Below are positions 41,467 to 50,248 of a DNA stretch of 50,248 nt, one piece after another; the stretch's first letter is position 1; each line of letters opens with the position of its first letter. The position numbers and the translations under genes were made by a program. A model generated the notes under the pieces. It saw nothing but the letters and a program-made list of their open reading frames with translations, made no database searches and was not told the origin of the DNA. Source of the stretch: Patescibacteria group bacterium (GTDB taxonomy: Bacteria; Patescibacteriota; Patescibacteriia; SBBC01; CAIJZX01). The stretch lies in NCBI GenBank assembly GCA_038065275.1, contig JBBTRH010000009.1, positions 1-50,248 on the forward strand. Direction: 5' to 3'.

Positions 41467-41546
41467 TCACTTAACGTTCGCGTCTCATCCGCCGCGGACC
41501 CTGAGCGAAGTCGAAGGGGGAGTGGCGGATAGACGCTGTTGTGCGA
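41467..41546 (+). repeat. attC-like site X
   Basis: tcacttAAC gttcg cgtct-C-atccgcc ...loop... ggcggat-agacg ct GTTgtgcga. There is an extra C on the AAC side. Confidence 0.75.
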
Positions 41547-41567
41547 TTTTTCTCCGGCGATGTAGTG

Positions 41568-41846
41568 CTATGAACCATAGTTACATGACATCTCTCTATC
41601 AGGTGTATTGGGCGGGCTGCCGGTGGGAGTTCCGAAACAGCGACGCTCACCTATTGGTAGGCCAAAACACCTGTCAGTAAAGCCGTCAATATAGTTGTCA
41701 CGAACTGAAAAACCAATACACTGTCGCTGCCATGTATGCAGTCCATCAGAACAGACAGGACCACAGAGCGGCCCGCCCGATTCCTTAGGGAAAAAGATTA
41801 TCCCTATCAATATAACGCCCGCGAGAATGAGAATAACTTTTTTCAT
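41568..41846 (-). CDS. Cassette ORF: small Cys-rich secreted protein (92 aa)
   Basis: Signal-like MKKVILILAGVILIGIIFF and 8 Cys residues. Confidence 0.55.
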   Translation of the reverse strand: MKKVILILAGVILIGIIFFPKESGGPLCGPVCSDGLHTWQRQCIGFSVRDNYIDGFTDRCFGLPIGERRCFGTPTGSPPNTPDREMSCNYGS

Positions 41847-41886
41847 AATGGCCCCTGTTTTTTATGATGACTAGCCGGAGAAAATT

Positions 41887-41990
41887 TCGTACAACGTTTG
41901 CGCGTCATGCGCCGTCCGGAACGAGCGGGGCGGTATAATATCGTAACCGCCTAAGCGAGAGAAGGATGGCGTATACGCGCTGTTGTCCGA
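41887..41990 (+). repeat. attC-like site Y
   Basis: tcgtacAAC gtttg cgcgt-C-atgcgcc ...loop... ggcgtat-acgcg ct GTTgtccga. Confidence 0.75.
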
Positions 41991-42050
41991 TCGTACATTT
42001 TTATCTCTCAAAGAAAAGTTCCCGCGCTGTGCACGCCGAAGTTGATTTTT

Positions 42051-43193
42051 TCATGGTTGGTTTTGTTGAGCCTTGATAACTTCCAAACTAAGTTTGTCAT
42101 CTGGCGGAACAATTTCCTTAGACCATGGGTTGTAGTAAACACGGTCATAAATTTCGTACGGCTTGCCGATGAATCCGCCCTTGCCCTCAAGTGGAACGCG
42201 CCCTAAATCCCATCGATCGTAATAAGAAATATATGTTCCATGTTCATCCTGGCCCTTTGAAACTTTGAATGCACCCATGACGCCAATAGCATTACTTTCT
42301 GAAAACTCATTTGCTGCTGGTGCGTCTGATAGGATTGCTGTTCCAGGTTCATCTGTATTTTTCCATGGTATATCATCAACACTTCGGAATGACCCATCCT
42401 CGGCGGGATCCTCCGCACCGTTCCGTTCGTCAATGATTCGAAGTAATGCCGGGACAAGATTCGCCTTCATAAAAGTGCTGTCCTCAATCGCTTCATCGCC
42501 AGTCCGTTTAAATGACCGTGAAAACCGTAACGCCCAGTCGTTGATGCGATAATAATATTTATCCTCTGTGCCGTTGTCTGGTCGAAATTCTGAAATACCA
42601 AAAGTATTATTTTTTTGAGGCAGGCCAAGATACATTTTCCACGCGTCTTCGCGGTCCGGATTATTTTTTGCGGAATATTGTATATCATCCTCATCCTGTG
42701 GTGGAACTATGACATTCTCTCTGTCGGCAAGATTTCCGGGCGCCCGTTGCAGAATTTGTTGAAGCGATTGATACCCTTTGGGTGTAACGAGGCGATAAGT
42801 CAAATCGCTCAGGCCAGGCTTATATGCTTCGCGCTGTTCTGTAGTGATGCCATTGTTCGATAGTTCAAGACTTGCTCGAGCCCGGTCATGAAAAGCCCCC
42901 TCATGATGACGATCAGGTGTATCAAGAGCACCGACCAACAGGAGCGGAAGGAACCGTCGCATTTTTCGGTTAAAGGATTTTTGTAGAGTTACAAATTTCT
43001 CCCTCAGTTCTTCATTGTCGGTGCGTCCGGCTACTTCCTGTACCCGTTCCTCAATACCGCTAAGTTGCTCGAGGTGCGTACTTAATGTATGAAGAAATTC
43101 TTCCTGTTCTTCTGGCGACTCGAGCGTCTCTCTGTCCTGTCCGCTTAACTCTGACAGCAACGATTCGTGGAATGTAGAATTTTCACCTCTCAT
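42051..43193 (-). CDS. Cassette ORF: hypothetical protein (380 aa)
   Basis: Long ORF with no motif recognised. Its start overlaps (ATGA) the stop of a 41-aa upstream ORF. Confidence 0.6.
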   Translation of the reverse strand: MRGENSTFHESLLSELSGQDRETLESPEEQEEFLHTLSTHLEQLSGIEERVQEVAGRTDNEELREKFVTLQKSFNRKMRRFLPLLLVGALDTPDRHHEGAFHDRARASLELSNNGITTEQREAYKPGLSDLTYRLVTPKGYQSLQQILQRAPGNLADRENVIVPPQDEDDIQYSAKNNPDREDAWKMYLGLPQKNNTFGISEFRPDNGTEDKYYYRINDWALRFSRSFKRTGDEAIEDSTFMKANLVPALLRIIDERNGAEDPAEDGSFRSVDDIPWKNTDEPGTAILSDAPAANEFSESNAIGVMGAFKVSKGQDEHGTYISYYDRWDLGRVPLEGKGGFIGKPYEIYDRVYYNPWSKEIVPPDDKLSLEVIKAQQNQP

Positions 43194-43315
43194 CGTGGTG
43201 GTGGTTGAGAATCAGACGTTTCAGCATCTTTCAGCAGGCCTTCAAGTTCTTCGGTATAGGCCTTAATCGCATTAATTACTTCAACTTGGGCATTATCGTT
43301 CGGTTGTGGTTTCAT
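43190..43315 (-). CDS. Cassette ORF: small acidic protein (41 aa), translationally coupled to the 380-aa ORF
   Basis: Hand-translated MKPQPNDNAQVEVINAIKAYTEELEGLLKDAETSDSQPPPR. It has a 4-nt ATGA overlap with the downstream gene. Confidence 0.35.
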   Translation of the reverse strand: MKPQPNDNAQVEVINAIKAYTEELEGLLKDAETSDSQPPPR

Positions 43316-43429
43316 GTATTCGGGGCAAATAGTTTTCGTTGAAAAGTGTTGATTAACCTGATATCAATAAGCTTATTATATTGCGAAACGGCAGCGCGGG
43401 AAATGAACAAAAGGAGATAAAAATGTATG

Positions 43430-48557: not shown

Positions 48558-48696
48558 GTTTGATTACTTGAGGCAATGAGTGAAATGGCGTACAACGTTT
48601 CGGGCTAGCCGAAGTTGCGTAGTCCGCGTGGCGGTACAATTTTACCACCGCCTAAGCGGACAAGCAATTTGGGTGAGCGAGTTATTTCTCTTTGTT

Positions 48697-48999
48697 TTAT
48701 GTGGCAAGTTCTAAGATTTTGACTTTGTTTTTCAAAACGCTTGACAGTTCTTCTTCCTGTACCGCCAAGTCAAAGCGGGACTGCAAGTTAAGCCAAAACT
48801 GCGGTGAAGTTCGAAAATACTTCCCTAAGCGAAGAGCGGTATCGGCACTAATCGCCCGCTCTCCATGGATAATCTCATTGATCCGGCGCGGGGCAACATC
48901 AACATCTTTTGCCAACCGGTATTGGCTGATGGCGAAAGGCTCCAAAAACTCTTCCATGAGTATCTCGCCCGGATGAATTGGTTGCATTTTTTTGGTCAT
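48697..48999 (-). CDS. higA: HigA-type antitoxin (HTH, Xre family)
   Basis: MQPIHPGEILMEEFLEPFAISQYRLAKDVDVAPRRINEIIHGERAISADTALRLGKYF is a classic HigA/VapI sequence. Confidence 0.88.
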   Translation of the reverse strand: MTKKMQPIHPGEILMEEFLEPFAISQYRLAKDVDVAPRRINEIIHGERAISADTALRLGKYFRTSPQFWLNLQSRFDLAVQEEELSSVLKNKVKILELAT

Positions 49000-49019
49000 A
49001 GTAATGTAGGTTATTCTCG

Positions 49020-49304
49020 TTAATGATGATAATCGACGATTTCTACTTCGTAAGCGTCACCCTGACGCCAGTTGAAACAAATTCTCCACTGGTCATTGAT
49101 GCGAATACTGTGTTGTCCGCGCCGGTTGCCCTTGAGTTTCTCCAGGCGATTCGCCCGGGGTACTCGTAAGTCTTGAATATTCAGGGCCGCATCGATCATC
49201 CAGAGTTTTCGCAAGGCAGTTCGTTGGATATCTGGAGGCAGTTTTGGCGAATATTCCCGGTTAAATATTCCAGCCGCTTCCTTTGATTTAAAGCTCTTTA
49301 TCAT
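49020..49304 (-). CDS. higB: HigB-type toxin (RelE/ParE superfamily, plasmid maintenance system killer)
   Basis: MIKSFKSKEAAGIFNREYSPKLPPDIQRTALRKLWMIDAA...LKGNRRGQHSIRINDQWRICF. The toxin lies upstream of the antitoxin, as in higBA. Confidence 0.88.
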   Translation of the reverse strand: MIKSFKSKEAAGIFNREYSPKLPPDIQRTALRKLWMIDAALNIQDLRVPRANRLEKLKGNRRGQHSIRINDQWRICFNWRQGDAYEVEIVDYHH

Positions 49305-49530
49305 GCGATAGGGGTATAATAACGTATTACAATAATACTGTCAAGCGTTAACAGTAGCAAGAAATAACTCGCTCACCGGTTAGCCCGTGTTAGCTGATGT
49401 ATTCCTTTTCTTTTCTTCTCTTGCTAAGAGAAGGCGGGGGGAAAAATCTTTCAAATTTTTCTTTGATCGGTCTCTCTACAATAATGAAGCGGGGTCCGAC
49501 CGATTGGCCGAACCCCATCACGATCCCCAT

Positions 49531-50004
49531 TCATTTCCAGGTACCAGCCATTCTGAAGAAGCTCAACTGTTCGTGAATGCGAGGTGCAATCTCACCTACA
49601 ACCCTCAGGAATTCAGGCAGTGCGTCCCGGACTGCCTTCGTGTACCAGGCAGGAAGGGTCAGGCGATACCCATCATAGGGGCCAGTGAATTTCCAAATGG
49701 TATGGCTTCCGGGTGTGATCAGTGTTCCAACCGTTATGACCCACATGCCCTCGACGTTATCGACATCGAGAGTACCAGACACCCCCGTTTCCAGGGGCTG
49801 ATCTCCTGGCAGGTGCGCAAGTCCCGTGTAAATACCATGTAGCGGGACTTGGAATACTCTGCTCTGCCTCTCCTTTACACGGAGCTTCCTCAGGAAAGGC
49901 ATCACGATCCCGAAAATCGCCTCAACCTCCCTCCGGTAACGATCGACATTCCCCGATCCACGGATGATTTGCTGGGTATCTTCTGGCGTGCAGTGTTCTT
50001 TCAC
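49531..50004 (-). CDS. Cassette ORF: hypothetical protein (157 aa)
   Basis: Long ORF with no motif recognised. Confidence 0.5.
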   Translation of the reverse strand: MKEHCTPEDTQQIIRGSGNVDRYRREVEAIFGIVMPFLRKLRVKERQSRVFQVPLHGIYTGLAHLPGDQPLETGVSGTLDVDNVEGMWVITVGTLITPGSHTIWKFTGPYDGYRLTLPAWYTKAVRDALPEFLRVVGEIAPRIHEQLSFFRMAGTWK

Positions 50005-50187
50005 AACTTCCTCCTGGTCCTGTCTCCAGGACGCCTCTCTCGAGTTGCGGAGTGTACATCAGCCGCTTTGGCCACACTTGGTCTACCACTAATAGATACT
50101 TGTTGTCAACATACCTTGGCTAAGAAAGAAATTTGAAGGATCTTTTACCCCCCTCGGGCAGTAGCCCGGAAAAAGAAAAGGAATATG

Positions 50188-50248
50188 TCAGCTAACTCGT
50201 TATTATGCGAACTGGGGCGGGTTGGCACCCTTATTATTGCATATTTTG
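50188..50248 (+). repeat. attC-like site K (left arm only; cut by window edge)
   Basis: tcagctAAC tcgtt... Its left 9-mer is the exact reverse complement of the GTTagctga that opens this cassette at 49389. Confidence 0.55.

Follow-up and report, generated by a model that had tools for sequence, protein, structure and literature searches.

The last 10 kb of a 50,248-nucleotide (nt) stretch of DNA from a Patescibacteria group bacterium (GenBank assembly GCA_038065275.1, contig JBBTRH010000009.1, positions 1 to 50,248; hereafter, the window) raise a simple question: what kind of cassette array is this, and why should the two ends of a cassette be complementary well beyond the recombination box? 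Positions 40652-50248 form a tandem array of integron-type hairpin sites (RYYYAAC ... GTTRRRY, with an inner stem of 11-13 bp), here called attC sites. We delimited 13 segments (S0 to S12), each running from the GTT box of one attC to the AAC box of the next (Table 1). The original prediction, made from the nucleotide sequence of the window, had set the start of the array at 41538, whereas it actually lies at about 40652. It had further claimed that the ends of every cassette pair for 25-30 bp beyond the crossover triplet and that this pairing is broken by a conserved 2-nt mismatch.

Long cassette-end stems with a fixed mismatch are a real feature of the array. A repeat finder used on its own recovered cassette-flanking inverted repeats of 20-29 nt that were 88-92% complementary (I3, I5, I7, I8, I9, I11, I13, I16, and I22). 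When left ends were compared with the reverse complements of right ends, positions 1-9 were fully complementary in 12 of the 13 segments and positions 10-11 were not complementary in any, with mostly TG on the left arm and mostly AA on the reverse-complemented right arm (variants, TT/AA, TG/CA [twice], AG/AA, T/AA, and TCG/CA). The mismatch was thus as predicted, consisting of T·T and a G·T wobble on the plus strand and of A·A and C·A on the minus strand. Beyond the mismatch, a further 9-16 nt paired without gaps in 10 of the 13 segments. Given a 1-nt loop asymmetry, the extensions of S1 and S2 were 11 and 14 nt; that of S5 was only 6 nt. In S0, an insert of about 60 nt replaces the TG, and pairing restarts exactly at right-arm position 12. 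The long complementarity is therefore present and cassette specific, but it covers about 14-24 bp beyond the triplet rather than 25-30 bp (total repeat length from the G of GTT, 17-27 nt; median, about 24 nt), and it is found in 11 of the 13 segments (12 if the 6 nt of S5 are counted), plus the interrupted variant in S0, rather than in all of them.

The extension averaged 9.7 nt between cognate ends and 1.7 nt between noncognate ends, and a scan of the entire window for the signature gave 11 matches, all within 41538-50196, and none in the other 40 kb. The pairing is not limited to a few related cassettes, because the window holds at least nine unrelated extension sequences; the feature was also found at 15 other loci. 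Chance and the common descent of a few cassettes were ruled out by the cross-pair comparison and by the covariation described below. The GATG of the left arm had been noted as placing an ATG at a fixed position. We rejected a start codon role for it, as reading frames from this ATG were not conserved (open lengths, 2 to 106 amino acids) and five cassettes had no ATG.

For comparison, we used arrays located next to true IntI genes, namely, betaproteobacterial chromosomal integrons and one class 1 array (L093 to L099 and L101; L numbers designate loci). The terminal-repeat scan gave no matches in these canonical control arrays. The ends of nine canonical cassettes were complementary over 3, 9, 11, 11, 6, 11, 11, 13, and 12 nt. 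The predicted contrast with known integrons was borne out, since none of the nine exceeded 13 nt, but the 6-7 nt assumed as a baseline for known integrons was too low. Perfect end complementarity of 11-13 nt was frequent in canonical cassettes, above the usually quoted 7-nt core.

The comparison covered 85 related loci. A metagenome scan with an alignment of the recombinase described below was productive, and a single-protein scan of genome contigs yielded 5 loci, mostly cut at the array. The signature (GTTRRRYGA, TG/AA, and 11-39 nt of cassette-specific complement) was present in 31 further cassettes from 15 independent Patescibacteria loci, essentially all upstream of the recombinase. A generic detector (AAC...GTT plus L-stem) missed many sites and gave false matches outside arrays and was therefore used only for ascertainment independent of the repeats. 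Among sites ascertained by the inner stem alone, the extension was present in 33 of 48 inter-site segments; the remainder were mostly multicassette spans or segments with a 14- to 60-nt insert exactly at the mismatch.

The check for covariation that accompanied the original prediction gave a strong signal across unrelated cassettes. For 40 junctions, 95.8% of cells were paired, compared with 60.8% after shuffling (0 of 500 shuffles reached the observed value) and about 42% when the partner was slid, and both sides had changed in 19 of 23 pairs. Pairing was 91-100% at positions 12-22 and then 85, 76, 65, and 41% at positions 23-26 (background, about 40%). At positions 10 and 11, the left arm had T in 34/34 and G in 33/34 cases, and the other arm had A in 32/34 and A in 34/34.

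No recombinase gene is encoded within the 50-kb window. However, the last open reading frame (ORF) of the window also occurs on a 1.9-kb contig (L001), which overlaps window positions 49385-50248 (864 nt) with 100% identity and runs on into a gene for a tyrosine recombinase of 273 amino acids. This plus-strand gene starts about 110 nt past the window end and is transcribed divergently from most cassette genes. Its product is of the Xer type: it passed the cutoff of NF040815 recomb_XerA_Arch (224.5 bits; cutoff, 220) and failed that of TIGR02249 IntI (216 bits, in two pieces; cutoff, 265). Aligned to VchIntIA (2A3V), it is 20 residues long across the region of the IntI-specific insertion, for which IntI4 has 63. 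The best PDB match was Pyrococcus abyssi XerA (4A8E), and the protein is equally close to archaeal XerA and IntI4. An ordinary integron, as originally assumed, is contradicted both by this lack of the IntI-specific domain and by the bulge layout of the attC sites.

The identical protein is assigned by NCBI to a Patescibacteria metagenome-assembled genome, and Kerfeldbacteria, Pacebacteria, Gracilibacteria, and others have proteins 60-76% identical to it. A "Cand" subgroup has been described for the Xer-related recombinases of candidate phyla (Smyshlyaev et al. 2021, PMC8138268); they are grouped there with presumed chromosome dimer resolvases, as presumed Xer replacements, and neither cassettes, a cassette array, nor an attI is mentioned. 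Judging from taxonomy, domain content, and that published description, the recombinase next to the window very likely belongs to this subgroup, and it may double as the cell's dimer resolvase. There is no skew switch in the window, a stretch too short to place the terminus. Downstream of the genes for more distant recombinases that likewise lack the I2 helix of integron integrases (38-45% identity), hairpin-site arrays were also present (L084, L074, L075, L063, L055, L079, and L081); pairing of their cassette ends spans 9-10 nt, is broken by a single mismatch at position 11, and continues for another 8-13 nt.

An attI-like junction, ATTTC-RYYYAAC↓T[CG]GTT..TAT.CGAA (the arrow marks the junction), was found 110-130 nt upstream of the recombinase start at >25 loci, and the TATACGAA element recurs closer to the recombinase gene. 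The array is on the attI side of the recombinase in the window, L006, L013, L015, L028, and others. Two contigs from one sample share an identical recombinase and attI, yet their first cassettes, joined at AAC↓TCGTT, are not the same; such a polymorphic first cassette is what insertion at attI would produce. By eye, the arms of attI are not inverted copies of each other. The attI at 50190-50248 (RYYYAAC↓TCGTT..TATACGAAGT) is similar in sequence to the attC 5' arm (RYYYAAC GTTTnnnnnTATnnGAAGTT). In L016 (about 6530-6640), the repeat of the TATACGAA element reads TATACGAAGTTAT and is identical to the loxP arm, probably by coincidence.

When the own ends of a cassette were joined around its attC, as in the circular form, one continuous hairpin was predicted, in line with the original proposal. 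From the base, it consists of an outer stem of 11-15 bp, T·T beside the G·T wobble, an R stem of 9-10 bp, a 3-nt bulge, the inner stem, and the apex. The crossover box is thus predicted to sit high on a long stem, as had been suggested, although 20-27 nt from the base. Circle-junction folds had energies of -31 to -63 kcal/mol (z about -11 to -12), versus -15 to -44 kcal/mol (z of -3 to -6) for the same attC with its real array neighbors, and the plus strand was more stable than the minus strand by 1-10 kcal/mol. The stem need not be confined to the circle: in a 611-nt stretch of the array folded as single-stranded DNA (ssDNA), the R boxes paired across S9 and the flanking inner stems formed separate hairpins in both the minimum-energy and centroid predictions.

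The motif GCGNAGC occurred 77 times on the plus strand and 12 times on the minus strand in 148 kb of arrays (window positions 40600-50248 and 17 related loci), typically at attC apices, whereas controls and flanking DNA were unbiased (17:14 and 15:23). d(GCGNAGC) is an extraordinarily stable DNA mini-hairpin (PMC13037366), and its strand bias points to DNA-level folding of one particular strand. Isolated mismatches in the L-stem were also considered as a guide to the folding strand and were rejected, most cases being artefacts of the register of AA bulges. The spacer between the R and L parts of the attC sites is a 3-nt bulge on one arm.

On balance, we regard it as somewhat more likely than not that an integron-like element of Patescibacteria (candidate phyla radiation, CPR) has its cassette array at 40652-50248, with the stems acting as clamps and the mismatch as a polarity mark. 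The analysis established the anatomy of the array, the covariation, the generality across loci, the type of recombinase, the conservation of attI, the polymorphic first cassette, and the fold predictions. From them we infer that the recombinase moves the cassettes, that a single-stranded fold is its substrate, and that stem and mismatch have clamp and polarity roles. The element would comprise an Xer-like recombinase without I2, an attI-like site, and cassettes made up of a cargo segment and a hairpin site. The cassette-specific stem would consist of 9 bp (the R box plus GA/TC), the fixed T·T and G·T mismatch (plus strand), and about 11-16 bp of free sequence. In ssDNA, this stem would clamp the cassette ends, so that the R-box arm becomes a complete, stable duplex beside the L-stem hairpin. 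The clamp could act both in the array, each cassette forming a loop, and after excision, when the stem would prolong the attC hairpin of the circle.

Integron integrases are held to have become capable of recombining single strands by gaining the I2 helix; the R box of canonical arrays is a poorly matched duplex, the complex being stabilized by the I2 helix and extrahelical bases (PMC7790495). In the element proposed here, the clamp may compensate for the missing I2 helix, whose role in canonical integrases is to stabilize folded sites that are weakly paired. Polarity and a preference for one strand would come from the difference at positions 10-11 (ATTTC on one arm and GATG, not GAAAT, on the other). 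Beyond the mismatch, the stem would only have to pair, which would explain why its distal sequence is free and covaries; the tolerance of branches at the mismatch also suggests that pairing alone matters there.

Both the stems and the attC sites have interrupted forms. At the mismatch, inserts were found in the window (40753-40813) and at L015:5092-, L018:2044-, L034:6771-, L044:6104-, L031:9122-, and L046:9192-. They replace the left-arm TG, often with GCGNAGC, and pairing resumes exactly at right-arm position 12, so that the mismatch site doubles as a branch point. An attC and its insert are kept as a unit, window positions 40646-40786 being about 80% identical to L013:5551-5692. The long attC sites a7 and a10 (173 nt) each have an internal second hairpin. 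Beyond its R and L stems and a side hairpin, the split site a12 has a distal stem of 18 perfectly paired bp (48672-48689 and 49360-49377) that surrounds higA and higB. The same split architecture with unrelated ORFs (86 to 252 amino acids) was found in L006 (twice), L015 (four times), L018, and L044.

The stems and the mismatch might also be explained in other ways. It is conceivable, if somewhat doubtful, that the mismatch is a by-product of two different duplex arm sequences (GAAAT at the crossover box and GATGT at the other) that set direction, the physical mismatch itself having no role. Arm asymmetry underlies the single-recombinase Xer systems XerH/difH and XerS/difSL and sets direction in dif sites. 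In our data, both dinucleotides are conserved in sequence and not merely unpaired, and the ATTTC form occurs at the attI-side junction and at the distal end of the array. This explanation nevertheless leaves the 11-16 further base pairs of free sequence beyond the mismatch unaccounted for, and these distal pairs ensure that the mismatch physically forms. It is best taken as a component of the clamp model, in which the enzyme may read either the mismatch or the two arm sequences. A more historical account, which we consider unlikely, is that the ends are halves of a preexisting hairpin (an "empty cassette") in whose loop cargo was loaded or swapped, with no need for a present role in recombination. 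Cassettes that share a stem have in common only about 25-150 nt per end (77-98% identity), whereas their interiors are unrelated, and their lengths differ, with cargo of 350 nt to 5.8 kb (S3 [43482-44129] and S12 [49389-50196]; S9 and L024:314-703; and cassettes of L025, L029, and L046). In addition, L015:3838-3949 is a 112-nt unit with the usual stem and no ORF, and unrelated cargo sits in the apical loop of an otherwise conserved split attC in at least nine cases. Shared ends with unrelated cargo, the ORF-less unit, and cargo in attC loops together suggest hairpin scaffolds that receive cargo and may provide a lead on the origin of cassettes. Inheritance alone, however, fits poorly with pairing that stays high through position 22 and falls steadily to background by positions 23-26 across many distinct end families. 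Related end families also change on both arms (e.g., TATTCC/TATTTC and TAATTAAAAG/TAATGAAAAG), which implies that pairing is maintained. We know of no mechanism for loading cargo into a hairpin loop, and a scaffold origin and the clamp model could both hold.

A function at the RNA level appears quite improbable. The ends could pair in the array transcript as an RNase III-type processing stem or act, with the attC hairpin and T-rich tracts, as a terminator or stabilizer. Stems of ≥20 bp around a functional unit are the classical RNase III arrangement, as in rRNA operons, whose flanks likewise pair over ≥20 bp and loop the unit out, and many extensions are T rich downstream of the attC hairpin on the coding strand. 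Many others are not T rich, however, and the recombination box forms the very start of the stem. In most cassettes, it is the less stable version of the mismatch, A·A and C·A, that lies on the sense strand, and the polarity of the mismatch is unchanged in the three cassettes with genes on the opposite strand. The strand-biased GCGNAGC is a DNA-specific mini-hairpin located on the antisense strand; unlike in the rRNA case, this bias and the link to the recombination box point to DNA. The stems also recall transposon ends, since insertion sequences and miniature inverted-repeat transposable elements typically end in inverted repeats of 20-30 bp, and each cassette might be moved by an end-recognizing transposase. 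We give this explanation almost no credence: the repeat sequence beyond position 13 is cassette specific, so no single protein could read the repeats, the cassette ends show no target site duplications and coincide with attC boxes, and there is no transposase among the array genes.

Several observations weigh against the clamp-and-polarity reading itself. About 15% of cassettes tolerate a branch of 14-60 nt at the mismatch, which argues against a continuous protein-bound helix there. Because end modules are common to cassettes with unrelated cargo, the stems may be inherited scaffolds that were not individually selected. The single cassette of L092 (I2-less, with an array) that was compared by eye pairs for only 9 nt, the small first cassette of L003 has no extension, and the canonical control is small (nine cassettes). 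The recombinase family is strongly conserved (60-76% identity across CPR classes) and treated as an Xer substitute (PMC8138268); hence, the recombinase could be a housekeeping enzyme and its adjacency to the array could have another cause. Finally, the mini-hairpins and the wobble favor the plus strand as the reacting strand, but the bulges run contrary to this: in the same orientation, they occupy the other arm from the one that carries the extrahelical bases in canonical bottom strands.

Cargo genes lie on the minus strand in 10 segments and on the plus strand in 3. Recognizable cargo includes two NUDIX hydrolases, one SLOG-family protein, and a HigB/HigA pair, and the stop codon of the S11 ORF falls within the left terminal repeat. 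The genomic contexts of two cassette proteins were looked up; one had no record, and the other had the same neighbors. Cassettes in L006:1-9900 (JGI Ga0502760_0000004, a 979-kb contig) encode restriction-modification methylases and endonucleases, GmrSD, and a Shedu SduA-like protein. The left neighbor of the array is a glutamate dehydrogenase gene. G+C content is 43-50% in the array and 53-63% in the rest of the window. An Rfam scan of the window matched tRNAs only, the attC-type sites not being covered by any match. Eleven tRNA genes occur in the 50 kb (4676-16602 and 37258-38004), three of which form a cluster shortly before the array region.

Table 1. Sites and segments of the cassette array, in window coordinates; terminal repeats are given as left end / right end
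Feature	Position	Site strand	ORF or gene (strand)	Paired ends or terminal repeats	Remarks
attC a0	40652-40750	+			Farthest from integrase; R box ACATAAC ... GTTAAGT; found by L-stem detection and sequence
Segment S0	40744-41475		40829-41410 (minus)	40744-40752 / 41467-41475	
S0 insert	40753-40813				About 60 nt in place of TG
S0 extension	40814-40831			40814-40831 / 41447-41464	
attC a1	41469-41544	+			
Segment S1	41538-41895			41538-41559 / 41874-41895	9 nt, 1x2 loop, 11 nt
attC a2	41889-41988	+			
Segment S2	41982-43438			41982-42007 / 43414-43438	9 nt, 3x2 loop, 14 nt
attC a3	43432-43488	+			Short type; apex GCGCAGC
Segment S3	43482-44129			43482-43508 / 44103-44129	End modules of about 75 nt common to S12
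attC a4	44123-44179	+			Apex GCGAAGC
Segment S4	44173-44646			44173-44196 / 44623-44646	
attC a5	44640-44696	+			
Segment S5	44690-45078		ORF (plus)	44690-44706 / 45062-45078	Short repeats; loop AG/AA
attC a6	45072-45128	+			
Segment S6	45122-45604		NUDIX (minus)	45122-45146 / 45580-45604	
attC a7	45598-45770	+			Long type, 173 nt
Segment S7	45764-46121		ORF (plus)	45764-45786 / 46099-46121	
attC a8	46115-46177	+			Apex GCGAAGC
Segment S8	46171-46800			46171-46194 / 46777-46800	
attC a9	46794-46850	+			
Segment S9	46844-47193			46844-46865 / 47172-47193	
S9 inner repeat				46897-46915 / 47151-47169	Perfect, 19 nt
attC a10	47187-47359	+			Long type; 86% identical to a7
Segment S10	47353-48034		SLOG protein (plus)	47353-47372 / 48015-48034	Loop TT/AA
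attC a11	48028-48082	+			
Segment S11	48076-48596		NUDIX (minus)	48076-48100 / 48572-48596	Loop TG/CA
attC a12	48590-49395	+	higA 48697-48999 (minus); higB 49020-49304 (minus)		Split; encloses both genes
Segment S12	49389-50196		49531-50004 (minus)	49389-49414 / 50171-50196	First cassette, adjoins attI; loop TG/CA
attI-like site	50190-50248	+			Junction AGCTAAC↓TCGTTATTATGCGAAC...; ends at window edge

The array has much in common with canonical integrons: a recombinase gene divergent from the array, a simple attI-like site whose AAC/GTT boxes are inverted, hairpin sites that combine R boxes with an inner stem, a junction at the GTT/AAC triplet, cassette starts complementary to the box ahead of their own site, and toxin-antitoxin and defense cargo. 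It differs in that the recombinase is without the IntI-specific insertion, the ends are complementary over 17-27 nt with a fixed internal mismatch rather than over 3-13 nt, the R-L spacer is a one-arm 3-nt bulge rather than an unpaired central spacer, all bulges are on the arm opposite to the canonical extrahelical bases, and cargo can sit inside an attC loop. IntegronFinder would not call this array an integron, because its definition of an integron needs an IntI-specific profile (PMC4889954). With the single-recombinase Xer/dif systems (XerA, XerH/difH, and XerS/difSL), the array shares an Xer-type recombinase and a site that adjoins the recombinase gene, as in xerS/difSL; unlike those systems, it has many small cassettes in one orientation, each with its own hairpin site, and R boxes of the integron type. 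In CTX phage integration, a folded single strand mimics a duplex site with built-in mismatches; a similar fold is predicted here, and units accumulate in tandem in both cases. The pdif modules of Acinetobacter plasmids are likewise discrete gene modules bounded by Xer-type sites, but pdif sites are 28-bp duplexes in alternating orientation, whereas the window has long hairpin sites that all face one way and terminal stems specific to each module.

A full-text literature search gave no description of cassette arrays associated with recombinases of candidate phyla or of extended cassette-end stems, most subscription journals lying outside its coverage. The array and its recombinase look like an undescribed integron variant. 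We tentatively propose, as a possibility that goes further than the reading of the window, that an "integron without I2" may be widespread in Patescibacteria and some other lineages. In such an element, an Xer-like recombinase would act on cassette sites folded from single strands, cassette-specific clamps with the T·T/G·T mark would replace the extrahelical bases read by I2, and cargo would be loaded in scaffold loops, both between sites and inside attC. It could be a surviving stage on the way from Xer/dif systems to integrons, or the same problem may have been solved independently.

If this is true, integron logic next to an I2-less recombinase would be another route to, or an earlier stage of, folded-strand recombination, and the transition from Xer to integron would become testable. 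It would also suggest a design rule for the substrates of small recombinases, namely, that any sequence will do, provided that its ends pair. Shared ends with unrelated cargo and cargo within attC loops would inform the long-standing problem of how cassettes arise. Such arrays would at present be filed, at best, as orphan attC clusters, and a large reservoir of candidate-phyla cassettes for defense and toxin-antitoxin functions may be uncounted, because standard detection requires an IntI-specific profile (PMC4889954).

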